64,000 nucleotides of DNA from Actinomycetes bacterium (GTDB lineage: Bacteria; Actinomycetota; Acidimicrobiia; Acidimicrobiales; JABEUL01): NCBI GenBank assembly GCA_021777355.1, contig JAJYDO010000001.1, positions 2,941 through 66,940 on the forward strand. The letters run 5' to 3'. Both the position numbers and the translations under genes were made by a program. Of this stretch, positions 24,430-44,812 are shown in pieces (the first letter of the stretch is position 1; each line of letters begins with the position of its first letter). The notes under the pieces were generated by a model. It did not search any database, was not told the origin of the DNA, and saw only the letters and a program-made list of their open reading frames with translations.

Positions 24430-25842
24430 TTGTCGAAAGAAAGCACCCCTCGCACTGTAGTTATAGGTCTTGACTGTGCTACCCCGCAGCTGTTTTTCGA
24501 AAAACTTTCTCAAGAGCTTCCCAATATTTCGGCACTGGTTAAAAGCGGGGCTTCTGGCAATTTAGCTAGTGTTGCTCCACCAATAACAGTTCCGGCATGG
24601 GCATGCGCTATGACGGGAAGAAACCCAGGCCAATTGGGTATTTACGGTTTTCGAAACAGGTGTGATCATTCTTATGACGGGCTGTCTATTGCCACTTCTC
24701 AAAGCATTCGCGAAAAAGCTCTCTGGGACCAACTCGGTGAAAAAAACCTTAAGTCATTGCTGATCGGGGTTCCGCCCTCTTACCCTCCGTCAGAAATCAA
24801 CGGATGGAGGGTATCTTGTTTCTTAACTCCCCCAATGGCCAAATCAACAACGTGGCCGCCTGAACTCGCCCTTGAGGTAGAAAAAGAGGTCGGAGATTAT
24901 ATATATGACATTCCAGACTTCCGAATGGCCGGCGAGGAGAGGGTTCTTCGAGATATTCATTCAATGACCACCAAGCGGTTTCAAGTTGCTTCAAAACTAG
25001 CAACTACTAAACCGTGGGATTTCATGATGGTTTGCGAGATTGCCTTAGACAGATTGCACCACGTGTTTTGGCAGCATTGCGATCCAAGCCACCCACTTTA
25101 TGTAGCTGGCAATCCCTACGAAAGTGCTTTCGTCGATTACTATCGACACCTCGATGACCAAGTTGGGAAATTTCTTTCCGTTTTGCCTCAAGACGCGGTT
25201 GTGATTGTAATGTCTGACCATGGTGCAAGACCAATGCTTGGAGGGGTATGCGTGAATGAATGGTTGATCAGAAATAACTATCTAACACTCAACTCTTCTG
25301 TGGAGAAGCCTTCTAAACTAAATGAACTTTCTATCAACTGGAACAAGACCAAGGCCTGGGCCGATGGTGGATATTATGGTCGTCTATTTTTAAACGTTAA
25401 AGGTCGCGAGCCAAACGGATTAATCGATCAAAGCGACTATGAGAAAGTAAGGGATGAATTGATTCAAGCATTTGAAGAAATGCCGGGGCCCAGCGGAGAA
25501 TATCTTGGCACCAAAGTGCATCGTCCCGAAGATCTTTACGGTGTAGTCAATGGAATAGCGCCGGATCTAATTATTTATTTTGGAGATCTCTCGTGGAGAA
25601 GCGTTGGAACTGTAGGTCTAGGTGATCTTTTTACGGCTGAGAATGACACTGGTCCAGATGGGGCCAACCATGACAAAGAAGGAATTCTCGCAGTAAAGGG
25701 GTTACCGGGTTTGGCTCCTGGGAAGAAAGTGGCGGCTAACCTCGTTGATATTGGACCAACCTTAATGTCGCTTTACGGATGTGAAATCCCTGAAGGGGTA
25801 GTGGGGAAAGACCTGCTATCGCAAAAAAACTTTTTTAACTGA
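24430..25842 (+). CDS. Type I phosphodiesterase / nucleotide pyrophosphatase (alkaline-phosphatase superfamily) protein, cytoplasmic
   Basis: VVIGLDCATP (metal Asp), PPITVPAWACAMTG (nucleophile Thr position) and VIVMSDHG. No signal peptide or TM segment. TTG start. Confidence 0.75.
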   Translation: MSKESTPRTVVIGLDCATPQLFFEKLSQELPNISALVKSGASGNLASVAPPITVPAWACAMTGRNPGQLGIYGFRNRCDHSYDGLSIATSQSIREKALWDQLGEKNLKSLLIGVPPSYPPSEINGWRVSCFLTPPMAKSTTWPPELALEVEKEVGDYIYDIPDFRMAGEERVLRDIHSMTTKRFQVASKLATTKPWDFMMVCEIALDRLHHVFWQHCDPSHPLYVAGNPYESAFVDYYRHLDDQVGKFLSVLPQDAVVIVMSDHGARPMLGGVCVNEWLIRNNYLTLNSSVEKPSKLNELSINWNKTKAWADGGYYGRLFLNVKGREPNGLIDQSDYEKVRDELIQAFEEMPGPSGEYLGTKVHRPEDLYGVVNGIAPDLIIYFGDLSWRSVGTVGLGDLFTAENDTGPDGANHDKEGILAVKGLPGLAPGKKVAANLVDIGPTLMSLYGCEIPEGVVGKDLLSQKNFFN

Positions 25843-25848
25843 ATTTTC

Positions 25849-27423
25849 TCAGTCTAAATATCCGAGCGATTGCAGATGCGCCTCCATTGCAAAACGCTCC
25901 TCGTCGCTCAATTCCTTATTTGCCGATTGGGAATTCTTAATGGATTCTTCTACACTCTTAAGATTTTCAGCATTTACGGAAGATATCCAATCAATAGATT
26001 TGCCTTCTAAATGGCCAGGACTAGCTATCCCTGCAAGGTTCAATAATGTCGGCAAAATATCTACCATCTCACTTGATTCATGCAAGCCACTTTTAACTCC
26101 CGGGCCCTTGGCAATCAAAATTCCTTTCATATGATGCACTGCTTCAACATCTCCAGAAGGGAGCACTTCAAGCTCGGATCCCACTTCGCTAGTTAGTATC
26201 CAATCATCATTGGGCAGTATTACAAGATCAGGAATAGTTGCCCCACTTTGAGTACCAAAAAGATCCAATCCTGTTTGAACTGATTTAAATGGACAATCTG
26301 CCCCGTCAATTTTTTGACAATTTTCAACGCCTTCAATTATCTTGTTTATGATTTCTGCTTTGTCCGTGGCATCTGGACTAATAAAAAGATAGCTTGCCCT
26401 TCCATCAACGGTTGGAGACCAGACCAAAGTGTTATTTGGATTCGCAGTCAGCGGAAGATATTCGGGAATGGATCTGAATTTCTTAACTGTATTGGATATC
26501 CTATCTTTGATGTTTGTAGGAATGTAAGCTGCAATTTTGTGCTGTAAATCCAAAGTTTTTGCAGATGTTGGCGACTTTACGCCTATCTTTTCCAACCAAC
26601 GCACTATATTGAGGCGCTTACCGCTGTCAAATCCGTGGTCAGATACGCACATTAAGTAACCGTCTTCACCGAGCCAGTCAAGTACCTGGCCAAGCTGTAG
26701 ATCAGTTTCTCTCCAACATCTTTCAAGCTCAGATTCACCTTTTCCAGTTTGTGAGAGTTTTCTTAAAGCTTCAAAATCCATATGGGAAACTCGGTCGGGA
26801 ATCACGTTGACACAAACTAATACGTCCAAAGAGTCCAGATGCTCTGAAAGGAAATGTCTTCTCATTTCTACCTGGTCGCCTAATTGGGTAAGGTATTTGC
26901 TTCTCTGGTCCATGTCATGTCTAAGTGCTTGAGAATGGATATCTTTTACGACTTCTGGCAGCCATCTTGGATAATTATCCAACAGTCCGGGTGGGCTGTA
27001 CATTCGGTCTGAATTAGGTGGAGCCATAATCCCACCGGTGAAAAATCCTTTTATATCTGGCGCAGGAAATCCAAGCGGGATGTCGATGCAGCCAACTTCA
27101 AGTCCTATTTCACCATAAAAGTCCCATAACATGGGTATTTTGCCGAATGGAACAAAACTAAAGGGATCCTCTGCATCATCTCTCCATGGCAGCCAAGGGC
27201 TGACTTGCCTCCAATAGAGAACCCCATGAGTTTTGGGAGAGACTCCTGACCAACAAGTAACCCAAGAAGGAACTGTGTAGATTGGAACAGTTGAGTTAAG
27301 CACTCCCCTACCAGCGGTTTTTAATAATTTGGCCATATTCGGCATTAAACCGCAAGATGCCAGACCTTCTAAAATCTCAAACGAAGCGCCATCAAGACCA
27401 AAAACTGCAATACGACTTGCCAC
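25849..27423 (-). CDS. Type I phosphodiesterase / nucleotide pyrophosphatase (alkaline-phosphatase superfamily) protein, diverged paralog of 24430..25842
   Basis: IAVFGLDGASF, VPIYTVPSWVTCWSG and LMCVSDHGFD. No signal peptide. Its stop lies 6 nt from the stop of the convergent paralog. Confidence 0.75.
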   Translation of the reverse strand: MASRIAVFGLDGASFEILEGLASCGLMPNMAKLLKTAGRGVLNSTVPIYTVPSWVTCWSGVSPKTHGVLYWRQVSPWLPWRDDAEDPFSFVPFGKIPMLWDFYGEIGLEVGCIDIPLGFPAPDIKGFFTGGIMAPPNSDRMYSPPGLLDNYPRWLPEVVKDIHSQALRHDMDQRSKYLTQLGDQVEMRRHFLSEHLDSLDVLVCVNVIPDRVSHMDFEALRKLSQTGKGESELERCWRETDLQLGQVLDWLGEDGYLMCVSDHGFDSGKRLNIVRWLEKIGVKSPTSAKTLDLQHKIAAYIPTNIKDRISNTVKKFRSIPEYLPLTANPNNTLVWSPTVDGRASYLFISPDATDKAEIINKIIEGVENCQKIDGADCPFKSVQTGLDLFGTQSGATIPDLVILPNDDWILTSEVGSELEVLPSGDVEAVHHMKGILIAKGPGVKSGLHESSEMVDILPTLLNLAGIASPGHLEGKSIDWISSVNAENLKSVEESIKNSQSANKELSDEERFAMEAHLQSLGYLD

Positions 27424-28091: not shown

Positions 28092-29114
28092 ATGATATCC
28101 CGAGGTAGGATTTTCACGCTGGAATCGTGCCGGCGTTGTCGTCAGGAGGATCATGAGGTGAATAACAAGTCATTATTTGACGATCTTCGACTTGAACTCG
28201 AGCGCGGTAACTCAATGGCAGTTGGGAGCGCTTTCCACAGAGTTCTTGTGGACGAACTCACATCTGGAAACCCTTATCTAAATTCAACAGAGTTTGAGAT
28301 GCTCAGGAAGCACTACCCGAATATCATGAATGGAAGCCGCCAACTCTGGCTAAGAGACGTGTATGCAAAAAGAAGATCCTACACCCTTGAATGCATTCGG
28401 AATGATGAGCGGGCAATGGTTTTAGATGCTGGATGTGGATTTGGCTCCGACAGTTTTCTTTTTGCTTCTCTAGGCGCCTCTGTGACGGGAATCGATATTT
28501 CCGATGACCAAATTCAAATTGCCGAAAAACGAAAGAGATATTATGAAGAAGGACTTTCCCAGGAACTGGTAGTAAAGTTCGAATCTGCAAATCTCGATCA
28601 ATACCGATCAGATCTTGACAATTTGTCATTGACATGGTTTGCAAGCGTCTTGGCGGCCGTTAGCGATCAGGACTCATTGTTTTCTTGGTTAAATCAATTA
28701 ACACGGCCCGGTGGACGTGTTGTCGTGACTGACATGAACTTACGAAACCCATTCTTTTCTTCCAGAGAATGGTTACGCCGCCAGAAGGCCAAAAGGCGAA
28801 ATCCGGAATTTGCCGCTAGTGCCAATTTTGGAGCTATGTTCCGCCGGACTGGACGCGTAGGCGCTAGGTATTTTCCGAGAGAAAATTCCGATAGTCAAAA
28901 AGGATTTGTCTTTGATGATGTCCAGTTCTTTACGCCAAATACATGTGCGAAACTTATGATAAATTCAGGATTCCGCGTTGAAACGGTTGATTATTCTGCT
29001 TGTACGCCACCTCTTCCAAGTGAATCTTTGACTGTTGCGGCAGAGAGGACCACCGGTGCTGTGCCAGGATTGAGATCTTTAGGTTATTTCTATACTGTCG
29101 TCGGTTCGAAGTGA
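28092..29114 (+). CDS. Class I SAM-dependent methyltransferase
   Basis: VLDAGCGFGSDS (motif I), GIDISDDQI and RPGGRVVVTDMN. A better start may be GTG 28158, which sits 10 nt after AGGAGG (28144-28149). Confidence 0.8.
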   Translation: MISRGRIFTLESCRRCRQEDHEVNNKSLFDDLRLELERGNSMAVGSAFHRVLVDELTSGNPYLNSTEFEMLRKHYPNIMNGSRQLWLRDVYAKRRSYTLECIRNDERAMVLDAGCGFGSDSFLFASLGASVTGIDISDDQIQIAEKRKRYYEEGLSQELVVKFESANLDQYRSDLDNLSLTWFASVLAAVSDQDSLFSWLNQLTRPGGRVVVTDMNLRNPFFSSREWLRRQKAKRRNPEFAASANFGAMFRRTGRVGARYFPRENSDSQKGFVFDDVQFFTPNTCAKLMINSGFRVETVDYSACTPPLPSESLTVAAERTTGAVPGLRSLGYFYTVVGSK

Positions 29115-31915
29115 AATTATTTAAAAACGAGGTCTCGAGAACTTTAATAATATCGCGCATCGCAATATACCTTGCCGCCGAAGTGATTTTTATAGTCGCT
29201 AACATGCTTCCGCAAACTATTCGAACAGCAATGTGGAGGCTAGTCCTTCGGATGAATCCTTATCATGTCCTCGCGGCGCTGAACGCTGCAGCTGACCTTG
29301 AGGATCGAAATGGCTTGGATTCGTTTGAAATATTTCATCAAGCGCTTGGGGCGATGAGAAATATAGAGAAAATTTCCGCACCTGATCTCGCTGTGGCTTG
29401 GTATCCGGGCGAGAAGGTTTGGCTGCATGTTGTGAAAGTGTTATTGGGTCATGTTGGCTCGGATGTTGGATTGAAGGCAAGGGACGAAGCTACCGCTAAA
29501 ATGATTGTTGAACTTTCACAAAAATACCTAACCAGTGCCCAAAAAGCCAATAGATGGGACATCGCCGAGGAGGCTTTGGCAACATTCGAATCTATTGGTG
29601 GCACTAACTTGGAGTGTAGTTGGGCACGAATTGAAATCGAATGGAGACGCGGTTCATTGCTCTGGATCGATTTACTTGCTCAGATGTGCGAGCAGGGTTC
29701 CTTTCTTGATCCACGTGACCCTATTGAATGGGCCGAACGATCCCAGGAAATTGGCGAGCTTAATCTAGCGGAGGCGTGCCTTGTTTGGGCGAAATCTTGG
29801 CTTCCTGAGTATCCCAAAACTTGGCGAGTGTCAGCAAAAACAAAAAAAGCTTTAGGCAAGATGGAGGAAGCTCGAAGGCACCTGGAAAGAGCTTTGACAC
29901 TTGATCCCGGCGATATCCACGCATTTATAATGTGGCTTTGCCTAAAAGAGGATTCAGGCATTGGACTTGAACCGAGTTCGGAGATGAGTATTAGTCTTGA
30001 CATTTCTGGCGATACAGGACTTGGTTCGGAATTCGAAGTAATTTGTTTTGTTAAAGGTGCATCTCTGGAAGGTCGGATCTATCTTATTCCCCCTACCGGC
30101 TGGGGACTTGTTCCACTTGAAAACAACAAAGGAATTCAGAGCTCTGAAGCACGTTTTAATGTACTAGCAGCGCGGCCCGACAGGATCAATAAAGGGCCAT
30201 GGCTACTTCAAGCGATAGTGGTTGATCAAGGTTGTTATGCAGCGACAACTTGTGAAGTGAATGTAAACGATCCAACCCCTGGAAATATTCTAGTGGCAGT
30301 TACCGAAGATCACGAGTTTCAAGAAGAGCGGGGAGAGCTATTAGTCGACGATCTAAAGGCGCTATTTTTAGATAAGGCTAGATTGACTGCATCGCTGGGT
30401 GTGCCAATCACGCGTATGGTCGAAGTGGGATCAGCTATAAAGACGCTGCGCTGGGCCGAAAATACCTCATTGGATTCTAGGTGGGGTGATTTACAAAGGG
30501 AAGTGGAATGCGAATTGGCTGATGAGGTAATCCGAGGACTGGATGTCCAACCTCATTTACATGCATTTAACGATCCTGAATTCGATCATTTTCCATATGG
30601 CGTACTATCTGATCGCTTGGTACTATCCGATAAGTTTCTCAATACATCTTGGAATCTCAGAGGTGACTGGGCATCCGTTTCTTCACCTCCAGAACGAAAT
30701 CTAAAATCGAAAACCGATCGTCTGGCTTCTGCAGAACGTACAATAAGCGAAGTCGAACGAATCGGCTATCTCTCGGATCCTGATTATGCCGCATTGGTAT
30801 GGCGAAGTGGCCTATTGGAATTTGGAGAAGACCCGGTAAGCAGATTATGGTCAACAGTGGCACTTTTGCGAGCTGGCCTACTCGCCGATAGTGATGTACT
30901 GGCACCGTCGGAAGACAGCTTGTTCAAAAAGCAAGCTTCGGGTTTCGCGGCGAGTTGGAACGACCCATTCCAAGAAGGAGCGAACGGACCAATCTTGCAG
31001 TTGCCAATAGCTCAGAATTTGGAAGGCAGTTATATGAGCAGTGCACGCACATTGGCGCGTCGGGTGCGGCAACTAATTGATAATGAACGTGACTCAGGGG
31101 TAATCCGTCCAGGAGTACACGTCTTTACTCTCCTGACACATGACAAGTTAATAAACAGTAGGCATGGGCGTGACGTGGATAGTCTGGATGCAAGATATGG
31201 TGATTGGCCTGTGATTTTGGATCATATAGACACCTGGAAAGCTGAAGGGGCCCGCTTCGCAACTGCAAGAGAGTCAGTGCTTGCCCTTGCCTCCGATCTT
31301 TTATTTAGGCCGTCAGCATTGCTGCGTGGACTCACGTATATAGTTTCGCCAAAAGGTTTAACGGGCATAAAGTTTATGTTGTGCACGACAGGAGCCAAAC
31401 CAAACACAAATTCTCTCCACCCAATCCATCTGATGGCCGTGATCCCGCCTGTCTTTCGAGAATTTATAGATGGGGTCAGAGTCATTACCCAAAATGGGCA
31501 TGGGGAATCTGAGATCGACGAAAAGCCGGTTGAGCTAGGATCCGATCGCATATGGGTACAGGTTGGGAATGTTTCTTATCCAATTTCCTGCTTCTTTTCG
31601 TTAAATGGGAAGCAAGATCTATTGACTAGTGATTGGAAGCAAATTAAAGAGGGAAGTGAAGTAGTGGTGACCCTGGAGGCAAAGATAGCTAAAGCCAGAG
31701 TAGAGGTTTTGATCGGCCAGAATGACCTTGCAAATGCTGGACTATTGGGGGACTTAGCAGTATGCAACGAAACAGATACTCTAGTTCCCTCCGAGCAAGT
31801 TGCCGAAGGCTTGAGAATTGGTCCATTAGAATTAGCGGGGTCTAACAAAAATAATAAAAGCATGTGTAAATTGATCGTGCGCCAGGCCGATTCCAGAAAT
31901 ATTAAAGCACTATGA
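29111..31915 (+). CDS. 934-aa orphan protein: N-terminal TM helix, helical/TPR-like region, beta-rich module, possible divergent deacetylase-like barrel
   Basis: The long ORF has GTGA overlap with the upstream methyltransferase and ATGA overlap with the downstream GT. Residues ~10-31 are hydrophobic. EEARRHLERALTLDPGD looks TPR-like. VAVTEDHE, QPHLHAF and FTLLTHDK loosely recall NodB/CE4 motifs, but this is weak. Confidence 0.7.
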   Translation: MKLFKNEVSRTLIISRIAIYLAAEVIFIVANMLPQTIRTAMWRLVLRMNPYHVLAALNAAADLEDRNGLDSFEIFHQALGAMRNIEKISAPDLAVAWYPGEKVWLHVVKVLLGHVGSDVGLKARDEATAKMIVELSQKYLTSAQKANRWDIAEEALATFESIGGTNLECSWARIEIEWRRGSLLWIDLLAQMCEQGSFLDPRDPIEWAERSQEIGELNLAEACLVWAKSWLPEYPKTWRVSAKTKKALGKMEEARRHLERALTLDPGDIHAFIMWLCLKEDSGIGLEPSSEMSISLDISGDTGLGSEFEVICFVKGASLEGRIYLIPPTGWGLVPLENNKGIQSSEARFNVLAARPDRINKGPWLLQAIVVDQGCYAATTCEVNVNDPTPGNILVAVTEDHEFQEERGELLVDDLKALFLDKARLTASLGVPITRMVEVGSAIKTLRWAENTSLDSRWGDLQREVECELADEVIRGLDVQPHLHAFNDPEFDHFPYGVLSDRLVLSDKFLNTSWNLRGDWASVSSPPERNLKSKTDRLASAERTISEVERIGYLSDPDYAALVWRSGLLEFGEDPVSRLWSTVALLRAGLLADSDVLAPSEDSLFKKQASGFAASWNDPFQEGANGPILQLPIAQNLEGSYMSSARTLARRVRQLIDNERDSGVIRPGVHVFTLLTHDKLINSRHGRDVDSLDARYGDWPVILDHIDTWKAEGARFATARESVLALASDLLFRPSALLRGLTYIVSPKGLTGIKFMLCTTGAKPNTNSLHPIHLMAVIPPVFREFIDGVRVITQNGHGESEIDEKPVELGSDRIWVQVGNVSYPISCFFSLNGKQDLLTSDWKQIKEGSEVVVTLEAKIAKARVEVLIGQNDLANAGLLGDLAVCNETDTLVPSEQVAEGLRIGPLELAGSNKNNKSMCKLIVRQADSRNIKAL

Positions 31916-34338
31916 ACAACTCCCGAACACAAAAAGTTGCCATCGTAACGAACGTACTCTCGTCCTACCGCGTTCCTTGTTTCCAAGAGCTAATGTCGTT
32001 GTCGAAAGATCCCGTTTCTATTTTTATACTCGATAATTCGCTACACGAGCGCGAGTATATCCAACGAGGGGCGAACGCAAATATCCAAGTCACATATCTC
32101 CCAGGCAAGTCATGGCGCAGACAGCCATTCGATGATATTCATCTCAATGATATCCGTCCGATCGTGAAAGGTCGCTTTAAAATCATAATCTTGGGCGGAT
32201 GGCATGAACCTACCTACCTTATTCTTTGGCTCTGGGCACTCCTGACTCGACGTCAGACTTTATTTTGGGTGGAATCAACTTCGGCCGACAGTAGCCGTTC
32301 AGGATGGAAGGAGGCGGCAAAAAAATACCTGCTTGCCCGCACATGGGGTTGTATCGTCCCTGGAGAAGCATCACGATCTTACTGCCTGCAATTAGGGGTG
32401 GCCCCCGAGCGGATTTTCGTCGCTCCCAATGCAACAAACCGCGAGTATTTCAAGGCAAAGGCTGATGAGCTTATTCCCAAGCGGACAGACTTGCGGCGTT
32501 CCCTTGAGTTAAACCAGCAAACGGTACTCTTTGTTGGCAGGCTTGTCGAGAGACTAAAGGGAGTATCGAACCTTATTTCCGCGTGCGCGACTCTGAGTGG
32601 CTCAGAGAAGATAACTCTGGTGTTAGCTGGCGATGGTCCAGATAGATTGCGCTATGAAGCCGAAGCCAAAAATTTAGGGGTTAAATTGCGTGTAACCGGA
32701 TTTCTTACCCCAGAAAAGCTCTCTGAATATTATGCGGCAGCTGATCTTCTAGTCCTTCCGAGCCAGTCAGAACCCTGGGGATTCGTGGTAAATGAGGCTA
32801 TGGAATTTGGTCTCCCTCTTGTGATTTCACAGGCTGCCGGATGCGGCCCAGACCTTGTGAAAAATGGCATTAACGGGATTTTAGTTGATCCTGAAAATGT
32901 ATCTCAGATTGCGGACTCCATCAATCAAATCCTAGATAGTCCCAATAGAGCGAAAGAGATGGGTAGGGCTTCGCGGGAAGCAATACAAAATTTTAGTCCT
33001 CAAAAATGGGCAAACGGAGTCCTTGGAGCAGTAGAGTCATGCAAAGCCACCTCAAGCTCAGGATCATCTACCAATAAGAATTTCGAGAATAGGCGAATAT
33101 TGCTTTTCAACCCGTGGCAGCCACTAATTGGTCCCAACATCTACTTGGAAGAGCTTTTTAATGAGTGTCCTGAACTCGCTGGCCACTCTATTGTGGTCTC
33201 TCCATTCGAGAAAACTTTAGATATCTATTCAAACCTTGGATGCGAAGTGGAAATCTGGCCGGAGGCGAAGCTTATCCACCCTCCCCGTACTTGGCTGGGC
33301 ATGAGAGACTTGATGGCTGCAAACACAGTTGATTTGGTCAGAATTGTCCACAGGGTAAACCGCCTAAAGCCATCGGTGATAGTTACGAATACGGAGAATA
33401 TGTGGGCCAGTGGCATTGCTTCTAGAGTGTTAGGCATACCGCATATACAGGTGTACCACTCTATGCTTGTGGACTATCGTTTAGCTAACCACCCAAGATT
33501 TCGTAACTTTTATTTAAAATTGATGTCTCAACTTTCTACCTTCATAGTTCCAGTTTCCAATACTTTGGCTGTTTCATTAAAAAGAGGCGGGATGCCCGAA
33601 AAGAAACTACAGGTAGTGCCGAACTCGATTGCGATAAATCCTATTGTTAATTCTGAAACGAAACGCTTCCGCTTGAGCCCAACGGACACTGCAAAATTTT
33701 CTGACGTTGTTGCTGGCCTGGATGAGACTATCGAGGGGTCACCCATAATAGTCTCAGTTGGATTGTTCAGCAGCGTAAAAGGACAGGATATATTAATCGA
33801 AGCTCTACCCGACGTGATAACCGAATTTCCGAATCTTGTGTGCCTTTTGGTCGGGGACGAGATGGATATCGACGCTTCTCTACAGGGAGCCTCAATGGAT
33901 CTCGATACCCAGCGTATACATGGAGAATTTCGAGAACAACTTGTAGCGCGCATGGAAGAGCTTGGAATCGATAAAAACGTAAGATTGCTGGCGCGTTATA
34001 AAAATGTCCGCGATATTTTGCGAATGGCAGATTTGTGTGTCCAGCCATCTCGTACAGAATCGTTCGGCCGTGTCGCAGCAGAAGCGCTTCTGGAAGGAAC
34101 TCCGGTTATAGTTAGCGATGCAGGAGGCATGCGAGAAGCTGTAGGACCTGGCGGATGGATAGTAAGCACTGGAGATGTACCTTCTTTGACGCAGGCCATC
34201 CTTGAAGTACTTAGAGATTGCGAATCTGCTAGAGTTCGAGCTGAAGAGGGGCGGAGGTATGTAAGCGCACAATTTTCACCTTCAGAGTGCTCAGCAAAAT
34301 TCGTGGAGGTACTTCGGCATGCAGGATACACTTTCTAG
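31912..34338 (+). CDS. Fused double glycosyltransferase (two GT4-like GT-B modules)
   Basis: There are two EX7E motifs: EPWGFVVNEAMEFGLPLV in module 1 and ESFGRVAAEALLEGTPVI in module 2. The Ser-rich linker CKATSSSGSSTNKN separates them. Confidence 0.85.
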   Translation: MNNSRTQKVAIVTNVLSSYRVPCFQELMSLSKDPVSIFILDNSLHEREYIQRGANANIQVTYLPGKSWRRQPFDDIHLNDIRPIVKGRFKIIILGGWHEPTYLILWLWALLTRRQTLFWVESTSADSSRSGWKEAAKKYLLARTWGCIVPGEASRSYCLQLGVAPERIFVAPNATNREYFKAKADELIPKRTDLRRSLELNQQTVLFVGRLVERLKGVSNLISACATLSGSEKITLVLAGDGPDRLRYEAEAKNLGVKLRVTGFLTPEKLSEYYAAADLLVLPSQSEPWGFVVNEAMEFGLPLVISQAAGCGPDLVKNGINGILVDPENVSQIADSINQILDSPNRAKEMGRASREAIQNFSPQKWANGVLGAVESCKATSSSGSSTNKNFENRRILLFNPWQPLIGPNIYLEELFNECPELAGHSIVVSPFEKTLDIYSNLGCEVEIWPEAKLIHPPRTWLGMRDLMAANTVDLVRIVHRVNRLKPSVIVTNTENMWASGIASRVLGIPHIQVYHSMLVDYRLANHPRFRNFYLKLMSQLSTFIVPVSNTLAVSLKRGGMPEKKLQVVPNSIAINPIVNSETKRFRLSPTDTAKFSDVVAGLDETIEGSPIIVSVGLFSSVKGQDILIEALPDVITEFPNLVCLLVGDEMDIDASLQGASMDLDTQRIHGEFREQLVARMEELGIDKNVRLLARYKNVRDILRMADLCVQPSRTESFGRVAAEALLEGTPVIVSDAGGMREAVGPGGWIVSTGDVPSLTQAILEVLRDCESARVRAEEGRRYVSAQFSPSECSAKFVEVLRHAGYTF

Positions 34339-35238
34339 CCCGACGTCGGATAATTGACGGCGCCATCTATATTTGACCTTTCGCACACAAACCTCTTTGG
34401 GTTTAGTATTTACCTTTTACGAGTCTGATTTTCAAAAATACCATCTGTCGACTACTGGTTTTAAAGCTGGAGGGACACACCTCTCCAACTATTTATTTCC
34501 GTTTTATCAAAGTGGTGTTAGCAAACGAGTAATGCACAGTGAACAATTTCCCATGCCGTCACATCCGAGGCCAACCAAGATAAGACAAAGTTACAAAAGA
34601 AATCCAACCAGAAAACGAAACTCTCATTTTTTGGGACCAAGAAAAGTTATGATTTCCATACATCATCTGTTGTAATTGTCTTCGTAAAACTTTCTCAGCA
34701 TCGGATAGGAACTAATATCCTGCGGCCTAATTGCCTGCCCAACTAAAACGATGGCCCGTAAACTTGTAAAATCAAGTTGCTTAATCCTGCCACTTCAGTT
34801 TTTGCCTAAGTATTTGAACGGGCTCTTAAGAGTAAATTTAACCGCCAAAATGTCACCGGTTGTCAAGTTGCCAAAGAGGAGAAAACGTCATATAACTTTA
34901 AGGATACAAATTCATTATTGCCAGAAATCATTTAAATGCCAAGACAATGTAATTATTTGAAATATTGCTCTGCATTATTTAAATTTAAATAGAGAGTTCA
35001 CTTCACCGAATTATTTACTGAGCCAAGTTCAGAAGATTTGCAATAAATGTGCCCGCTAATTAGCCAGCTCTTACACCTTCAAAAAATTGAATGTAATTGT
35101 TGGGTTCACTTAATATTGGTAGAGAAAAAGACCAAATGTTGGATTTTCCCTAAACCCCCAAGTTTGTTTTTCCATTCTTTGTACTTGCTTCCTACAGTAA
35201 TATGGACTTAAGTTCATGGAAACTGATATGATCAGAAA

Positions 35239-36340: not shown

Positions 36341-37324
36341 ATGAATAGTTATGAGCAGCTTGACGACCAGGTAATCTTATTAACAGGAGGTACTGGATCT
36401 TTTGGACGCGCATTTGTTAAAGAAGTACTGCAAAAATCAAGCGCGACTATTCGCATATTCAGCCGAGATGAGTTGAAACAGCATGATTTGAGCCTAGAGT
36501 TAGAAAATTATAATGACCGGATCCGTTTTTTTCTAGGTGACGTTAGAGATAAGCCAAGGCTAACACGTGCTGCTAAAGGCGCTAATATTCTGATTCACGC
36601 CGCTGCCTTGAAGCAAGTTCCGGCTTGTGAGTACAACCCATTTGAGGCAGTCCAAACAAATGTAGTTGGTGCGGAAAATGTGGTCGACGCTGCCATAGAT
36701 GCTCAAGTAGCTAAAGTAATTGCCGTTTCTACCGATAAGGCGGTAAATCCAGTAAATCTTTATGGCGCCACTAAGTTATGTGCCGAAAAAATCATAGTTC
36801 AGGGAAATGCTTACGCATCTCGAAGCGAAACAAAACTGTCGTGCGTAAGATATGGCAATGTGGTTGGATCAAGAGGTTCCGTTTTACCTTTGTTTCTTAA
36901 GCAGAAAGCATCGGGGTGCTTTACAATTACAGATACTCGTATGACTAGGTTCTGGATTACATTACCCCAAGCAGTTGAACTTGTTATTACAGCGCTAAGT
37001 ATAATGAAGGGAGGAGAAATATTCATTCCTAAAATCCCATCAATGAAAGTTACTGATTTGGCAAGGGCAATATCTCCGGATGCCAAACAAAATGTGGTTG
37101 GCATCCGTGCCGGCGAGAAACTTCATGAGATCCTTTTGACTTCTGAAGAGAGCCGCCATGCGGTGGAACGTGATGGGATGTACGTTATTTTTCCAGAGCA
37201 TCCGTGGTGGGGAGTTGATCGATCAGATGAAAATGATATTGCACTCCCGGAGGGAATGGTGTATTCAAGCGATTCAAACGAACACTGGTTGACAAGCAAA
37301 GAAATTGAAACCCTGATTCGATGA
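36341..37324 (+). CDS. pseB: UDP-N-acetylglucosamine 4,6-dehydratase (inverting)
   Basis: ILLTGGTGSFGRAF, IFSRDELKQ and YGATKLCAEK (YxxxK). It is 327 aa and the first gene of the pse operon. Confidence 0.88.
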   Translation: MNSYEQLDDQVILLTGGTGSFGRAFVKEVLQKSSATIRIFSRDELKQHDLSLELENYNDRIRFFLGDVRDKPRLTRAAKGANILIHAAALKQVPACEYNPFEAVQTNVVGAENVVDAAIDAQVAKVIAVSTDKAVNPVNLYGATKLCAEKIIVQGNAYASRSETKLSCVRYGNVVGSRGSVLPLFLKQKASGCFTITDTRMTRFWITLPQAVELVITALSIMKGGEIFIPKIPSMKVTDLARAISPDAKQNVVGIRAGEKLHEILLTSEESRHAVERDGMYVIFPEHPWWGVDRSDENDIALPEGMVYSSDSNEHWLTSKEIETLIR

Positions 37325-38415
37325 TTCCTTATGGCCATCAATCAATTAATGATGACGACATTGCAGCTGTCACGCAGATCCTAAAAGGTGACTGGCTTAC
37401 TCAAGGACCAGCAGTTGAGGAATTCGAAGAAGCCTTATGCAGCTACACTGACGCTAAGTTTGCCGTTGTTTTTTCAAGTGGAACGGCGGCATTACATGCT
37501 GCTTGTGCGGTCGCCGGATTTGGGCCAGGAAACAGTATCTATACTTCGGCATTAACCTTTTCAGCCAGTGCGGCATGCGCCCTTTACGTTGGAGCTGAAC
37601 CTCGCTTTCTTGATATTTCTCCGGACACATTGAATATGGATTTAAGTCTTCTGCCTCCGAATGCCGATGGCCTAATTGCAGTTCATTATGCAGGGCTCCC
37701 TATTGACTTTGCAAAAATGCCCTATCGACCTGGAATAATAATTGAAGATGCATCTCATGCACTCGGCGCCATTGGGAAGAATGGCCCTATTGGTAATTGT
37801 GCGGATTCTGATATGTGTACTTTTTCCTTCCATCCCGTGAAAGCTATCACCACCGGCGAAGGTGGCGCGGTGACTACTAATTCAAAGGCTCTGGCTAATT
37901 CACTCAGAACTTTTAGAAGTCACGGAATTGTTCATAAACAAGAACAAGGTAATTGGTTCTATGAAGTCGATTCAATCGGTTTTAATTACCGTTTAACTGA
38001 TATTCAATCGGCTCTTGGCCTAAGCCAGCTAAAGAGATTGGATCGATTTATCGAAAGGCGCAACGAAATTGCGAGTCGCTATAGAGAGTTACTCCAAGAT
38101 CTTCAGGTGACTTGCCCCCCAAGTGCTCCAGTAGGCTCAACTCACGCCTATCATCTATTCCCGGTTAGGGTTAAAAATCGGCGAGCGATATTTGACTATT
38201 TGAGAAATGCTGGAATCGGTGCTCAAGTGCATTATATTCCTCTTTACAAGCATCCTTTATATGCTCGCACAGGAAGCCAGTTCCAGTTTCCTTCAACCGA
38301 AACAGTTTATGGCGAGCTACTCTCGTTGCCTATTTTTCCAGATTTAACAGATGCAGATCAGGATATAGTGATTGAAGTCCTTGGCAAAGCTTTGAATGAG
38401 GTACCTGATAAATGA
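37321..38415 (+). CDS. pseC: UDP-4-amino-4,6-dideoxy-N-acetyl-beta-L-altrosamine transaminase (DegT family)
   Basis: MIPYGHQSINDDDI...LTQGP N-terminus. The PLP-lysine block is FSFHPVKAITTGEGG, with the Lys codon at 37840-37842. ATGA overlap with pseB. Confidence 0.85.
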   Translation: MIPYGHQSINDDDIAAVTQILKGDWLTQGPAVEEFEEALCSYTDAKFAVVFSSGTAALHAACAVAGFGPGNSIYTSALTFSASAACALYVGAEPRFLDISPDTLNMDLSLLPPNADGLIAVHYAGLPIDFAKMPYRPGIIIEDASHALGAIGKNGPIGNCADSDMCTFSFHPVKAITTGEGGAVTTNSKALANSLRTFRSHGIVHKQEQGNWFYEVDSIGFNYRLTDIQSALGLSQLKRLDRFIERRNEIASRYRELLQDLQVTCPPSAPVGSTHAYHLFPVRVKNRRAIFDYLRNAGIGAQVHYIPLYKHPLYARTGSQFQFPSTETVYGELLSLPIFPDLTDADQDIVIEVLGKALNEVPDK

Positions 38416-38894
38416 ATGAGTTAACCCTTCATCTAGCTTCTGCAAAAGACGCCAGTTTAATATTCGGTATACGCAATCTGCCTGAGAGTATCAAGTTTAG
38501 TGGAACCGGGCAGCCCGTGACAGAAAACGAGCACTTTGTTTGGTTTGAAAATTTACTGAAGGATAAAGGTCGCAGACTTTGGATTTTAAACGACGGCATT
38601 GATGATATTGGATTCGTCAGAGTTGATTTGCTAGATGAGGCCGTGGGTCAGATTGGCCGGGTAAGTATTGGAATCAAAAGAGAGAGTCGCGGACATAATT
38701 ATGCGAGTCAAGCCCTCGGATTACTAACTTTGCAGCTTAAGGATATGCGTGACTTTTACGTTGAGAGATTAAGAGCTTTTGTGCATTTCGACAACATAGC
38801 TTCAGTAAAGACATTTAGAAAAGCCGGTTATGCAGAAGTTAACACTGAAAATCCATTTGTTACTTTCGAGATCCTATTGAGTAATGAGAGTTAA
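38412..38894 (+). CDS. pseH: GNAT N-acetyltransferase, PseH-like
   Basis: IFGIRNLPESIKF, EHFVWFENLL and NIASVKTFRKAGY. ATGA overlap with pseC, and the position between pseC and pseG is as expected. Confidence 0.75.
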   Translation: MNELTLHLASAKDASLIFGIRNLPESIKFSGTGQPVTENEHFVWFENLLKDKGRRLWILNDGIDDIGFVRVDLLDEAVGQIGRVSIGIKRESRGHNYASQALGLLTLQLKDMRDFYVERLRAFVHFDNIASVKTFRKAGYAEVNTENPFVTFEILLSNES

Positions 38895-39897
38895 TACGAC
38901 CAAGTCTGGGACACTATGGCTTAGAACAGGTTCATCACCCGATATTGGTTTAGGGCATCTTATGCGTACTTTAGCAATTGCAGAAAGCGCGCATAGGCAA
39001 AACCTGAGATGCTGCTTTGTAATTGACAACAATACCGATGTGGATCGTATACGAGCCGTTGCTGACAACGTTCAAACTGTATATTCAGTTAATGATGATA
39101 TGTGGACATCCTCAATATCGTCGGGAGATTTTGTCGTGTTTGACGGTTATGAATATAGTGGAGACAATTTTCGCCACGCTAATGATGCCGAAGCAGTCGT
39201 AGCTTGCTTTGACGATTTCGGGATCTCTTTCCCTGCCGGGGTTCTAGTTATTGATATTAGCGAAGCTGGTGGAGAAGGTCCCGTGGACAAGGATCATCAA
39301 AACTCTAGACATTCTAATCGGCTTGTAGGCCCTCATTACGCTCCGATTCGGAGCGAATTTTTTCCGTTCCGCCGCCACAGGGAAGATCCAATTGAAACAA
39401 TCGTAATAAGCCTCGGTGGTTCCGACATGGGAACGCTCACTCAGGAAGTTACACGTTCAATTCTCCATTTGAAAGATAAATATAACGTAGTAGCGATAAT
39501 CAACCAAGACAAGCTTGCCGGAAAGGAAGCAGACTGGCCAACTGATGTGGAAGTTATTTACTCGCCCCCTAGAGTCGGAGACATTTTTGATCGAGCCGAT
39601 TTAGGAATATGCACTGCAAGCACTACTGCTCTAGAAATGGCCTTCATGGGAATTCCAACATTACACTTGCAAGCGACTAATAATCAGAAGGCGATGGCCA
39701 ACATGCTTACAAAATATCAAATATCATATTCACTTGGAACCAATTTGGGAGATCTAGAACAAATTATTTACATGATGAATGAAAGTGCGATTCGATCGTC
39801 ATTGAGTAGGCGAGCATTGGAGACCATTGATGGAATGGGAGCCGAGAGGATATTAAAAACAATGGTCGAAGCACACCCTAATGTAAGGCGGGCATAG
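38884..39897 (+). CDS. pseG: UDP-2,4-diacetamido-2,4,6-trideoxy-beta-L-altropyranose hydrolase, PseG-like
   Basis: RTGSSPDIGLGHLMRTLAIAE N-terminus, SLGGSD, and a GT28-C-like fold length. It overlaps pseH by 11 nt. Confidence 0.78.
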   Translation: MRVNTTKSGTLWLRTGSSPDIGLGHLMRTLAIAESAHRQNLRCCFVIDNNTDVDRIRAVADNVQTVYSVNDDMWTSSISSGDFVVFDGYEYSGDNFRHANDAEAVVACFDDFGISFPAGVLVIDISEAGGEGPVDKDHQNSRHSNRLVGPHYAPIRSEFFPFRRHREDPIETIVISLGGSDMGTLTQEVTRSILHLKDKYNVVAIINQDKLAGKEADWPTDVEVIYSPPRVGDIFDRADLGICTASTTALEMAFMGIPTLHLQATNNQKAMANMLTKYQISYSLGTNLGDLEQIIYMMNESAIRSSLSRRALETIDGMGAERILKTMVEAHPNVRRA

Positions 39898-39900
39898 AAA

Positions 39901-40980
39901 TTGTCAAATGGAGATTTAATTTCAACGTGCGTGAAGATTGGAAGCAGCCGGGTTGGACTCGGTGAGGAGGCCTACATTATTGCCGAGCTTTCTGGAAATC
40001 ATCTTGGAAAACTTGACAATGCTATTGAGTTACTTCGCGCAGCTAAAAATGCTCGGGCTAACGCGGCCAAACTCCAGACATACACAGCTGACTCCATGAC
40101 AATAGATTCAGATGCTGATATATTTAAGCTACCCGAAACTTCGCTTTGGAAAGGTTACACTTACTACCAGCTATACAAAGAAGCTGCAACACCGGCTGAG
40201 TGGCTTCCAAAACTTAAAAAAGAAGCAGTTCGGCTGGGAATAGATCTTATTTCATCTCCGTTCGACAATGAGGCCGTTCGTATTCTAGATGAACTTGACT
40301 TTCCTGCTCTGAAGATTGCTTCGTTTGAAGTGGTTGACCTTAAATTGATTCAGAGTGCGGCATCCACCGGACGGCCAGTAATTATTTCAACAGGTATGGC
40401 CACGCTGGCAGAAGTTGATGCTGCCGTAAATGCCGCAAGATCAGTAGGCGACGGGGGAATAATTTTACTTTATGCCAGCAGCGCATACCCTGCGCCCACT
40501 TCCGACATGGCATTAAGGACTATCCCGCATATGATTAAGACGTGGAATTTGCCGGTTGGGTTGTCAGATCACACACAAGGAATACATGCGGCAGTCGCGG
40601 CAGTCGCTCTTGGTGCCAATGTTATTGAAAAACACTTGACTCTGCGACGATCAGATGGCGGGCCTGATGCAGAGTTTTCGATGGAGCCAGACGAATTTAA
40701 AAAGCTGGTGTCGTCAGTGCGTGAAGTCGAAAGCACATTAACGCGAGTTCGATATGGACCATCTCCTGGCGAAATAGTAAGCCTCAACTTTCGTCGCTCG
40801 CTTTTCGTCGTAAAGGATATGGAAGCAGGAGAAAAATTTAGCGAACAGAATGTACGCTCGATTCGGCCTGGTTACGGATTGCCGCCCAAGGAATGGAACC
40901 AAATTGAGGGCAGAGTTGCACGTGGTGCAATAAAGCGGGGAACCCCTCTTCAGTGGGATTTAGTAGGTGATATTGGTTAA
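39901..40980 (+). CDS. pseI: Pseudaminic acid synthase
   Basis: YIIAELSGNHLGKLDNAIELLRAAKNARANAAKLQTYTADSMT carries the QTY variant typical of PseI. A C-terminal SAF domain is present. The start is TTG 39901 or GTG 39931. Confidence 0.85.
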   Translation: MSNGDLISTCVKIGSSRVGLGEEAYIIAELSGNHLGKLDNAIELLRAAKNARANAAKLQTYTADSMTIDSDADIFKLPETSLWKGYTYYQLYKEAATPAEWLPKLKKEAVRLGIDLISSPFDNEAVRILDELDFPALKIASFEVVDLKLIQSAASTGRPVIISTGMATLAEVDAAVNAARSVGDGGIILLYASSAYPAPTSDMALRTIPHMIKTWNLPVGLSDHTQGIHAAVAAVALGANVIEKHLTLRRSDGGPDAEFSMEPDEFKKLVSSVREVESTLTRVRYGPSPGEIVSLNFRRSLFVVKDMEAGEKFSEQNVRSIRPGYGLPPKEWNQIEGRVARGAIKRGTPLQWDLVGDIG

Positions 40981-42805: not shown

Positions 42806-42935
42806 TTGTGAACAACTTTGAATTAATTTTGTATCATTTGTGACTTGTCAAAGGTGCACCAGGACCAAGAACCAGGAAGTCAGATCTAAAATAGAGTGAG
42901 TATTTAGACTGAAGAAAAGGGCAAAGTATTTAAGC

Positions 42936-43169
42936 ATGACTAGTTTCGAGTTCCAAGATAGTTTACTGAGTGAAAGTAATTTTGATTCCTGCATACTTCT
43001 CAACTTTCGATGTCACGCTATAAGTCTTTTTGCACGACAATCAAAGATAATCATTCAACCAGATGGAGAGTTGACGTTTTCACGGTTTGAAATTCAAAAA
43101 GCACAAGGTGTCCTGCAAGAACGAATTTTCCTAGAGTCGAAGCGTAAAATTCGGGGAGTTAGATTTTGA
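42936..43169 (+). CDS. Hypothetical small protein (77 aa)
   Basis: It is the only ORF in the 360-nt spacer, and it overlaps the TTG start of the next gene by 4 nt. It has no recognisable motif. Confidence 0.3.
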   Translation: MTSFEFQDSLLSESNFDSCILLNFRCHAISLFARQSKIIIQPDGELTFSRFEIQKAQGVLQERIFLESKRKIRGVRF

Positions 43170-44308: not shown

Positions 44309-44812
44309 CGGCTAAACACCATGGTTGTTATTTGACGGCATAAATAGTAGAAAATCTAGTCATAGTTTCTGAAAAACAGCTATTTCGGATGAAGAATTCA
44401 AAAGCTACCCAACTATTTAGCCGAGTGTTGTGCGAGCTTTAACTTGATGTTTTTCACCAAAAGTGTTTTTCGTAGTCAAATAGATTGATTCGAATTTCAA
44501 TTAACTAACTCGCAGGCATGAGCTAATCAGATATGTCATCTTTGTAGCAAATCGGGCTAATTTTCGACTTTTTGCAGCATTGGCCCTCCGTCTGAAAATT
44601 TGACATAAATTGGTACCAAGGTTCGAAACGGGTATCAACCACTAAAGTGCAATGACTACCAGGCAAAATTTTGGCTATTCGACCAATTTATGAATATATG
44701 CACATAAATATTTAGAAATATCTTTTAAGGTCGATATAGTATTTGGGTTATGCAATTGGCCTGAATAGGCCAAGTCCTGATTTAAAGATGGTAAAGATAG
44801 GACAATATCAAA

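Follow-up and report, generated by a model that had tools for sequence, protein, structure and literature searches.

A TPR-fused protein with a CE4-type barrel fold as a putative tailoring enzyme in Wzx/Wzy-type polysaccharide clusters

Introduction

In a 64,000-nt stretch of DNA from an Actinomycetes bacterium of the order Acidimicrobiales (assembly GCA_021777355.1, contig JAJYDO010000001.1, positions 2,941 to 66,940; hereafter referred to as the window), three consecutive open reading frames (ORFs) on the plus strand were read at 28092-29114 (340 aa), 29111-31915 (934 aa, with GTG as start codon) and 31912-34338 (808 aa). They encode a class I S-adenosylmethionine (SAM)-dependent methyltransferase (MTase), a multidomain protein termed X, and a double glycosyltransferase (GT), respectively. 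The interpretation proposed here is that X represents a new family of the CE4 fold with a fused tetratricopeptide repeat (TPR) region, which would tailor a heteropolysaccharide made by the Wzx/Wzy pathway; its chances are put at even. The parts of the proposal that we infer are the catalytic activity with its metal and substrate, the topology of X in the membrane and its contact with Wzy. The three genes form a translationally coupled operon that constitutes the conserved core of a glycan-building block in a heteropolysaccharide cluster of the Wzx/Wzy/Wzc type.

Fold and candidate active site of protein X

An AlphaFold2 model of X (29111..31915, plus strand), built on a 76-sequence alignment, reached a mean predicted local distance difference test score (pLDDT) of 91.4 and a predicted template modelling score (pTM) of 0.92. 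It begins with a hydrophobic helix at aa 7-30 (29129..29200; pLDDT 93-96), a candidate membrane anchor, which is followed by a TPR-like alpha-solenoid of twelve paired helices at aa 35-279 (29213..29947) and by an immunoglobulin (Ig)-like beta sandwich, delineated by DSSP strands, at aa 293-383 (29987..30259), in which G332, R355 and W364 are invariant throughout the family. The subsequent core (beta/alpha) barrel at aa 385-735 (30263..31315) exhibits the CE4/GH57 fold and is the putative catalytic domain; its alpha/beta part spans residues 392-730 in the full-length model. Finally, DSSP places beta-rich domains at aa 736-925 (31316..31885), where pLDDT is lower (65-93) and where the sequence is less conserved, this region being missing or shortened in several homologs. 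This architecture agrees with what had been proposed from the sequence-only reading, namely a single N-terminal transmembrane (TM) helix, about 250 residues of helical TPR-like repeats, an Ig-like beta module of about 90 residues, a NodB-like region of about 350 residues and a beta-rich C-terminus (735-925 in the model), although the transmembrane status of the helix is uncertain from the homologs.

In a Foldseek search with the full-length model, TPR proteins dominated (the TPR domain of OGT, consensus TPRs) at E values of about 1e-5. Pfam TPR_14 matched aa 235-273 of X just below threshold (22.8 versus a cut-off of 23.5 bits), and TPR models matched 39 of 53 family members, so that the paired helices, the structural matches and the profiles together identify a TPR solenoid. 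Since these matches swamped the full-length search, residues 385-740 were modelled alone (pLDDT 93.2, pTM 0.93). Searched against the PDB, this isolated core matched most significantly a putative polysaccharide deacetylase of M. smegmatis (3rxz; E 1e-7, TM-scores 0.49/0.59), and its fifth-best match was WbmS, a putative deacetylase from a Bordetella O-antigen locus (3hft; E 2e-4, TM-scores 0.29/0.39). Further matches comprised the CE4 esterases 7fbw and 7ax7 (E about 8e-4), the human heparan sulfate N-deacetylase NDST1 (8cd0; E 1.3e-3), the chitin deacetylase of V. cholerae (4ny2; E 1.6e-3), a Bombyx chitin deacetylase, ArCE4A and SlCE4 (5z34, 5lgc and 2cc0; E 2.0e-3), as well as Bc1960 and Bc1974 (5o6y and 5nc6; E 3e-3 to 2e-2). 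The modelled core shows the distorted (beta/alpha) barrel that characterizes the CE4/NodB domain. As judged from the model, it belongs to the (beta/alpha) barrels of the glycoside hydrolase/deacetylase superfold and comes closest to CE4-type deacetylases. Neither structure comparison nor hidden Markov model analysis assigned X to a well-known family unrelated to glycan modification.

Residue conservation was evaluated over 53 sequences with identities down to 17%, in a separate alignment of 30 cores, and among close homologs. In the first set, the polar core residues D400, E402, H482, H484 and H677 are invariant and T398, D478 and R565 near-invariant; the core alignment adds T398 and S594 to the invariant residues, and the close homologs add D595 and K679. 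According to the secondary structure of the model, the conserved core residues lie at or just after the C-terminal ends of successive strands, which corresponds to the catalytic face of a beta/alpha barrel, and their order and residue types (acidic pair, His pair, Arg, Asp, His) parallel motifs 1 to 5 of CE4 enzymes. The motif 1 analogue AVTEDHE (30296..30316, plus strand like the others) holds T398, D400 and E402 at the C-terminal end of strand 392-401. The motif 2 analogue DVQPHLH (30542..30562), with the invariant H482 and H484 and the near-invariant D478, terminates strand 478-483. The motif 3 analogue VWRSG (30797..30811; family consensus (W/F)R(S/A)G) contributes the near-invariant R565 and the invariant G567 on strand 563-566, while the motif 4 analogue LADSD (30881..30895), with S594 and D595, follows the short strand 592-593. 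The motif 5 analogue HVFTLLTHDK (31118..31147) places the invariant H677 immediately after strand 669-676. R565, D595 (within ADSD) and H677 (within LLTHD), at strand ends of the model and in the right order, are hence candidates for the CE4 motif 3 Arg, the motif 4 Asp and the LxH of motif 5.

The sequence-only reading had selected VAVTEDHE, QPHLHAF and LLTHDK as reminiscent of NodB/CE4 motifs 1, 2 and 5. The choice of these segments holds up in that their key residues are invariant or near-invariant and located at strand ends, but their spacing deviates from the canonical motifs and no profile links them to CE4; candidates for motifs 3 and 4 are added here from the alignment. The assignment of the barrel as a putative metal-dependent acetyl hydrolase is given an even chance. 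In such an enzyme, D400 and E402 would serve as base and metal ligand, H482 and H484 as metal ligands, and H677 as the catalytic acid, while R565 and D595 would tune base and acid.

A previously unannotated protein family

Searches of X against Pfam, NCBIfam, PADLOC and PHROGs assigned it to no family, the sub-threshold TPR repeat being the only match. A word-indexed homology search with full-length X recovered X itself only, and a profile of the core yielded four matches. By contrast with these word-indexed searches, to which the family is nearly invisible, an HMMER scan that exhaustively covered 1.84 billion cluster representatives was the sole approach that recovered it. The scan yielded 105 relatives at E<=1e-3, of which 70 reach E<=1e-10 and 32 reach E<=1e-30. 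All of them originate from metagenomes or metagenome-assembled genomes (MAGs), comprising Acidobacteriota, Chloroflexota, Acidimicrobiaceae and Myxococcota, and they bear the public labels 'hypothetical protein' or 'TPR repeat protein'. By its sequence relationships, X is a member of a previously unannotated family of about 70 clusters and no orphan, which amends the sequence-only reading: that the protein matches no family in the libraries named above stands, that it is without relatives does not.

The family is graded. Members of the close tier (about 900 aa) share 31-40% identity with X and align over nearly the whole length, those of a second tier share about 30% identity and align from residue ~200 onwards, and the distant tier (about 920 aa) shows 17-25% identity and matches residues ~200/350-725. 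In the weakest relatives the match is limited to the TPR part. Across the 53 members, TPR models were the only Pfam or NCBIfam models that matched, and 30 isolated cores gave no recurrent Pfam match at E<=10. Eight distant-tier members (P0038, P0048, P0049, P0058, P0061, P0066, P0078 and P0104) share an N-terminal tail motif, (I/L)LHN(T/S)G(V/A)F.Y, in front of their first TM helix.

Conservation of the operon across genomes

Gene neighbourhoods of X relatives were obtained from exact-protein look-ups and from a scan of GTDB species genomes, which was based on the alignment of close homologs, and were compared with the window proteins by blastp. The GTDB scan returned 14 loci, all from MAGs of Acidobacteriota (Thermoanaerobaculia), Chloroflexota (Anaerolineales), Acidimicrobiaceae and Myxococcota. 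MTase orthologs with 39-44% identity reside directly 5' of X in 12 loci. In ten loci (L004, L005, L010-L014, L016-L018), the gene order is GT4 (resembling the one at 20289 of the window), MTase, X, GT4, GT4, in some cases Wzy, AsnB-like amidotransferase, ADH/GFO oxidoreductase and heparinase II/III-like protein. Orthologs of the latter two (39-47% and 26-32% identity, respectively) lie 3' of the module in L004, L005, L010-L014, L016 and L017.

The junctions are preserved along with the order. MTase and X overlap by 4 nt (ATGA or GTGA) in L004/L010, L005, L012 and L017 and are separated by a 4-nt gap in L013 and L018, while an ATGA or GTGA overlap joins X to the following GT4 gene in eight loci (L005, L009, L012, L013, L015, L016, L017, L018). 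In several Acidobacteriota loci, a Wzy_C gene is inserted between MTase and X and overlaps each of them by 4 nt. Wzy_C directly precedes X, with overlapping junctions, in L014, in L007 and in L008, a locus of the distant tier. The unit MTase-X-GT4-GT4 is preserved, both in gene order and in the overlaps at its junctions, in more than ten loci of three phyla. A lack of co-conservation, which would have spoken against a functional unit, was not encountered; instead, the three genes remain in order and overlapping in Acidobacteriota, Chloroflexota and Acidimicrobiaceae. The block is virtually identical in L004 (Logan assembly SRR24677613) and L010 (Chloroflexota, Centralia_MAG_208), which, together with the similar blocks in Acidobacteriota and Acidimicrobiaceae, suggests that the whole block moves horizontally between phyla.

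Operon structure and the flanking enzymes

The chaining of the three ORFs by 4-nt overlaps, noticed from the sequence alone, is confirmed. At GTGA (29111..29114, plus strand) the start codon of X overlaps the MTase stop codon by 4 nt, indicative of translational coupling, and at ATGA (31912..31915, plus strand) the GT start codon likewise overlaps the stop codon of X. The bounding spacers also measure as originally given, 668 nt upstream and 900 nt downstream. The upstream boundary depends on the start of the MTase gene. The longest ORF begins with ATG at 28092 (340 aa), whereas an in-frame GTG at 28158 was found 8 nt after an AGGAGG sequence, and a public annotation (contig DAHWQP010000154.1, MAG GCA_027342685.1) gives the MTase 318 aa with a start at that position. 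From these sequence features GTG at 28158 is the more likely start, which confines the gene to 28158..29114 (plus strand) and enlarges the upstream spacer to 734 nt. For X, an alternative gene call in a protein database places the start at M48 and would thus remove the N-terminal helix. This start was ruled out: GTG at 29111 is the better start because homologs align from residue ~8-22 onwards and because the overlapping start is conserved elsewhere.

The sequence-only reading had also perceived the operon as GC-richer than its neighbours. A slight excess exists (GC content 0.467 versus a window mean of 0.441), yet it is marginal, since 5.4% of stretches of the same size reach or exceed this value and several of the window's housekeeping genes surpass the operon. 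A horizontally acquired GC island was therefore rejected, the excess falling inside the normal variation of the window. The downstream spacer (34339-35238) is AT-rich (GC 0.37) and contains a terminator-like hairpin at 34468-34487 and a TTG-started ORF of 100 aa at 34373-34675 that has no match in Pfam, both within chance expectation.

The MTase matches Pfam Methyltransf_31 at 4e-14 (52.9 bits versus a cut-off of 27) and in addition Methyltransf_25, _23, _11 and _12; it hence possesses the SAM-binding Rossmann-type domain of class I methyltransferases. Its closest relatives in the PDB are MitM and phosphoethanolamine N-methyltransferases (E about 3e-7), with the match confined to the generic SAM-binding domain, and the NodS family of Pfam gave no match. 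With a maximal Kyte-Doolittle hydropathy (KD19) of 1.13, the MTase has no TM segment and is soluble.

The 808-aa GT comprises two complete GT4 modules: Glycos_transf_1 (239 bits) and Glyco_transf_4 each match in two stretches, and the solved relatives in the PDB are GT4 enzymes. Module 1 (aa 1-375, 31912..33036, plus strand) contains the best Glycos_transf_1 stretch, at aa 197-356; it is connected by a Ser-rich linker, SCKATSSSGSSTNKNFENRR (33037..33096, plus strand), to module 2 (aa 396-808, 33097..34338, plus strand), which matches Glyco_transf_4 at aa 441-573 and contains the second Glycos_transf_1 stretch. The PelF model hit module 2 at only 46 bits versus a cut-off of 100. No TM segment was detected (maximal KD19 1.38). 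Module 1 shares 42-50% identity with a separate GT4 gene that directly follows X in L004, L005, L007, L010-L014 and L016-L018, and module 2 shares 34-38% identity with a second separate GT4 gene 3' of X in other loci. Since each half matches a separate adjacent gene elsewhere, the sequence comparison indicates that the double GT, recognized as such in the sequence-only reading, is a fusion of two neighbouring GT4 genes. Because neither protein has a hydrophobic segment, both MTase and GT should be cytoplasmic. A defence-system or phage origin was rejected, as X and GT found no match in PADLOC or PHROGs; the Pfam matches to 'GT4-conflict' are overlapping matches of generic GT4 domains and do not constitute evidence for defence.

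Competing interpretations and the membrane side of X

The proposed role of X has to be weighed against a number of unfavourable observations, which are gathered in this section together with the rival explanations. To begin with, sequence profiles do not connect X with CE4: PF01522 did not match X (E<=0.1), the 53 members (E<=0.01) or the 30 cores (E<=10), a profile of the core retrieved nothing from the PDB sequences, and hhalign of the core with a profile of ArnD, a genuine member of PF01522, returned a probability of 0.3%, the sole aligned segment being the helix-strand-His of motif 2 without significance. Moreover, the structural similarity to 3rxz is moderate, with a root-mean-square deviation of about 8 A in addition to the TM-scores stated above. 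The TFDD sequence of CE4 motif 1 is absent, X featuring T398-E-D400-H-E402 with i, i+2 spacing, as is the H(S/T)xxH of motif 2, which is replaced by the HxH-spaced pair H482-L-H484. For the i, i+2 spacing, motif 1 of PelA offers a precedent with base D528 and metal ligand D530 (PMC12022489).

In addition, the GH57 4-alpha-glucanotransferase of T. litoralis (1k1x; E 8e-5, TMq 0.44) ranks fourth among the core matches, so that the chemistry is not fixed by the fold. Hence, the barrel could be a glycoside hydrolase, transglycosylase or lyase-type enzyme (a GH57/GH38-like (beta/alpha)7 barrel, possibly metal-assisted) that trims, releases or sizes the Wzy polymer in the manner of the PelA hydrolase domain, PslG or AlgL. 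This explanation is regarded as improbable. It draws on 1k1x, on the match of the GH57 amylopullulanase 7e1y in the full-length search, and on the i, i+2 spacing of the invariant acidic residues D400 and E402 in strand 1, which recalls the H-x-D of GH38 zinc sites. GH57 enzymes also share with X the (beta/alpha)7 superfold and accessory domains C-terminal to the barrel. Furthermore, it is well established that many polysaccharide clusters encode a dedicated hydrolase. PelA is an example (PMC12022489). On the contrary, deacetylases both lead and outnumber glycosidases among the significant core matches, and the three invariant His residues, the Asp/Glu pair and the Arg would reproduce the CE4 catalytic set in count and order. 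The conserved block already encodes a heparinase II/III-like protein for cleavage, and the 30 cores gave no GH57 or GH38 match in Pfam at E<=10. GH57 enzymes employ a Glu/Asp pair as nucleophile and acid, located in their conserved regions III and IV. Such a catalytic pair is not identifiable in X, whose conserved set is instead His-rich and resembles a metal site.

A further point is that X of the window carries I433 and R435 where at least 90% of the family has W and H. The loss of these two near-invariant residues, along with the TPR and Ig-like modules, which are classic scaffolds, could be taken to mean that X mainly serves the Wzy machinery as a scaffold or chaperone without catalysis, its barrel being a sugar-binding pseudoenzyme by which the polymer is retained or guided. 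In PgaB, a binding and hydrolase-like module forms the C-terminal domain, which can be counted in favour of such a function. Nevertheless, the compact polar set D400, E402, H482, H484 and H677 is invariant down to 17% identity, as is typical of a preserved active site, and X of the window retains the whole set, which renders a purely structural role very improbable and speaks for the catalytic one.

Further objections concern the membrane side. The helix of X at aa 12-30 is strongly hydrophobic (KD19 = 2.26), but its flanks count three Lys/Arg residues each and are uninformative. The N-terminal helices of the close homologs reach KD values of 0.7-1.8 only, and Glu24 as well as Pro34 is invariant in 15 close homologs; given these weak helices with an invariant Glu, the close tier including X could be cytoplasmic. 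On these grounds, X might be a soluble or peripherally attached deacetylase or deformylase whose substrate, a nucleotide sugar or a repeat-unit intermediate linked to undecaprenyl, is processed at the cytoplasmic face, similar to ArnD or NodB, with the MTase methylating the freed amine (according to the logic of NodB and NodS) before extension by the GT4 modules. Such a scenario is unlikely, albeit the most serious of the alternatives. ArnD and NodB are CE4-fold enzymes that operate at the cytoplasmic side, ArnD on undecaprenyl phosphate-linked Ara4FN (Und-P-Ara4FN) and NodB on chito-oligosaccharides. X is tightly and conservedly coupled to an MTase and GT4s that are necessarily cytoplasmic, the helix of most close homologs stays below or near the TM threshold, and tier-2 relatives have neither a TM segment nor a signal peptide. 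The best PDB matches of the MTase, which are N-methyltransferases (MitM, phosphoethanolamine and glycine N-methyltransferases), are consistent with methylation of an amine, although they arise through the generic SAM-binding domain only.

Conversely, X of the window does possess the strongly hydrophobic helix, and distant-tier members are clearly exported or anchored: they contain one to three strong TM helices (KD 2.5-3.4), and the loop preceding the last helix carries 4-7 Lys/Arg residues, which by the positive-inside rule locates their TPR region and catalytic domain outside the cytoplasm. A lipoprotein-type signal, LISGC, occurs in one member of the family. Besides, X recurs beside Wzy, whose chemistry is periplasmic, a combination of TPR, Ig-like and beta-rich accessory domains is typically seen in periplasmic proteins that handle polymers (for example PelA and PelB), and the lack of a NodS-family match for the MTase in Pfam disfavours the cytoplasmic scenario as well. 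From these sequence-based indications, an extracytoplasmic, membrane-tethered X is moderately favoured over a cytoplasmic one, though it constitutes the weakest link of the argument.

Two remaining points belong to the same unfavourable side. Consensus scans for promoters and terminators found fewer sites than shuffled controls and are uninformative, and tier-2 relatives in Myxococcota occur in non-glycan contexts with MopE, PEGA and EGF-repeat proteins. In L020 (8675-15239) and L021 (670-11857), for instance, tier-2 relatives adjoin EGF-repeat (1182 aa), MopE-like metal-binding, PEGA and Band 7 proteins. The substrate of the Myxococcota-type branch may hence be a different one. Although L020 bears the label 'uncultured Enterobacteriaceae', the X relative encoded there has 30.6% identity to X of the window, the same as that of the Myxococcota locus L022, and mis-binning looks likely.

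The polysaccharide cluster of the window

From about 15.8 kb to its end, the window represents a single polysaccharide cluster of about 48 kb. The operon was initially regarded as a self-contained unit; instead, it lies inside this Wzx/Wzy-type cluster, and conserved partner genes are found elsewhere in the window. Pfam matches identify an AsnB-like amidotransferase (15823-17619), a Wzy_C polymerase/ligase-like protein (17976-19286) and a partner GT4 (20289-21473), all on the plus strand and with orthologs that flank the module in other loci, as well as, on the minus strand, a fusion oxidoreductase of ADH_zinc_N and GFO_IDH_MocA type (58996-61179) and the heparinase II/III-like protein (61202-63046). 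The block that is contiguous elsewhere is thus split in the window, with AsnB, Wzy and GT4 at 15.8-21.5 kb and the ADH/GFO and heparinase-like genes at 59-63 kb on the other strand. A Wzc-like protein with Wzz and P-loop domains (51946-53616) and a Wzx-like flippase of the Polysacc_synt_3/MatE type (56966-58453) complete the set of polymerase, flippase and co-polymerase that defines a Wzx/Wzy pathway. The cluster also contains several GT4s, an FkbM methyltransferase, a WbpM/CapD-like dehydratase and DUF4012.

Among the window ORFs of at least 150 aa, no OPX/Wza-type exporter was found, and neither were a GT2 synthase, a c-di-GMP receptor, PelD, PgaC/PgaD or a porin, so that the window does not qualify as a Pel or PNAG (poly-N-acetylglucosamine) system. 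Of the Pel/PNAG-like logic that had been suggested from the sequence, the idea of tailoring by a TPR region plus a deacetylase persists, but the membership in those systems does not. Similarly, the candidate undescribed exopolysaccharide module is borne out as a co-conserved module with an unannotated X family, which forms the core of a larger conserved block rather than standing alone.

Further genes of the window were noted in passing. Directly upstream of the operon, two genes of the ENPP/AlkP superfamily (Pfam Phosphodiest) are arranged tail to tail 6 nt apart (24430-25842, plus strand; 25849-27423, minus strand) and do not belong to the conserved block of other genomes. A nonulosonic-acid set of the pseudaminic/legionaminic type at 36341-48277 comprises a PseB-like dehydratase, a DegT aminotransferase, a GNAT protein, NeuB, a second DegT protein and a CMP-transferase (cytidylyltransferase). 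Two ORFs of this set, 38884-39897 (337 aa; at the position expected for a PseG-like hydrolase) and 40967-42805 (612 aa), found no match in Pfam or among PDB sequences. Amid the nonulosonic-acid genes, the 685-aa protein encoded at 44813-46870 combines a BNR_2 (sialidase-like) with a DUF2341 domain; a protein of sialidase fold is unusual in a biosynthetic cluster. A second ORF resembling sialic-acid synthases (NeuB/SAF) opens the window at 225-1061; Pfam NeuB matched only from position 46, so that the true gene start probably lies 5' of this ORF. Between it and the main cluster lie housekeeping genes (ilvBNC, serA-like and leuA-like), which occupy the first 14 kb of the window. No tRNA genes or Rfam families were found in the window.

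Proposed mechanism and relation to known systems

At the cytoplasmic face, the MTase and the two GT4 modules would build and methylate a lipid-linked repeat unit, a placement that follows from the cytoplasmic location of SAM and nucleotide sugars (family knowledge) and from the absence of TM segments in both proteins. X would be tethered to the membrane by its N-terminal helix, and its TPR solenoid and Ig-like module may serve as a docking or glycan-guiding scaffold, probably oriented toward Wzy, because the Wzy gene is the immediate neighbour of X in many genomes. After flipping and polymerization by Wzy, the barrel would strip acetyl groups, N- or O-linked, from the nascent polymer outside the cytoplasm by CE4-like, metal-assisted hydrolysis. 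In this manner, a single chain would perform in a Wzy-dependent pathway the tasks of PelB (inner-membrane helix and TPRs) and PelA (deacetylase and beta-rich domain), or those of PgaA and PgaB.

A close analogy is provided by the Pel system of Pseudomonas aeruginosa, in which PelA contributes a CE21/CE4-like domain (PMC12022489). PelB starts with an inner-membrane helix and continues with TPRs, of which numbers 9-15 are the obligatory docking site of PelA (PMC12022489). Pel and X thus have in common a barrel of deacetylase fold, a beta-rich C-terminus and a TPR region behind an inner-membrane helix. D528-x-D530 of PelA resembles D400-x-E402 of X, and both proteins feature a His pair and a late His, in X a putative acid, but motif 2 is HxxxH in PelA and HxH in X. 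Pel distributes these parts over two proteins, whereas X unites them in one chain and is devoid of a GH166 hydrolase domain or an outer-membrane porin; moreover, Pel is synthase-dependent, in contrast to the Wzx/Wzy-type cluster of the window, which has no set resembling PelD/E/F/G. PelA was absent from the top 50 Foldseek matches of the X core.

In the PNAG system, PgaB serves as de-N-acetylase in the periplasm and acts in a manner coupled to a TPR scaffold (PMC12022489), and the TPR regions of some X-family members weakly match the TPR model of PgaA. However, PNAG synthesis is synthase-dependent, its TPRs reside on an outer-membrane porin and not on the enzyme, and no GH153-like domain was identified in X. 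With CE4 enzymes of the NodB-domain family PF01522 (e.g., S. pneumoniae PgdA, 2cc0, 4ny2, 3rxz), X shares the fold, and it has five candidate strand-end motifs in the corresponding order, yet its barrel measures about 350 instead of about 200 residues owing to large insertions, lacks profile similarity and is fused to TPR, Ig-like and beta domains. WbmS (3hft) is likewise a divergent deacetylase-fold protein from a Wzy/O-antigen-type locus, although it is a single domain of 242 residues without TPR or membrane helix, and its function is putative, too. Finally, ArnD and the pair NodB-NodS establish that deacylation and downstream tailoring can be encoded in one operon, which is a known precedent for pairing a deacetylase with an MTase, but they do not contain TPR and Ig-like domains.

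The fold and the tailoring logic are hence known already; what appears to be undescribed in the libraries and literature searched are the sequence family of X, its motif variants, the single-chain TPR fusion and the setting in Wzx/Wzy clusters of uncultured phyla. A bolder proposal, to which somewhat less than an even chance is given, is that X founds a new carbohydrate-esterase (CE) family that combines the CE4 fold with a TxDxE/HxH/R/SD/H site, without a detectable sequence relation to CE4, CE18 or CE21, and whose membrane helix and TPR arm, being fused to it, would link it permanently to Wzy.

Implications

De-N-acetylation renders Pel, PNAG and the fungal galactosaminogalactan cationic and adhesive. 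To our knowledge, a TPR-docked periplasmic deacetylase step has so far been tied to synthase-dependent polymers, namely Pel, PNAG and, by analogy, alginate, with deacetylase and TPR protein being separate partners that dock. If the proposal for X is true, this step would extend to Wzx/Wzy assembly, the most widespread polysaccharide route, in uncultured Acidobacteriota, Chloroflexota and Actinomycetota, and the products would be partly de-acetylated, cationic and methylated surface glycans. X would moreover be a candidate for a new CE family, of use to CAZy annotation as well as to the enzymatic tailoring of glycans. On the methodological side, conserved motifs at strand ends in combination with structure prediction can recover enzyme families that were missed by every profile library tried in this analysis. 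A function would also be assigned to a family of 'hypothetical' and 'TPR repeat' proteins that is encoded in soil and sediment MAGs for which no cultured models exist.

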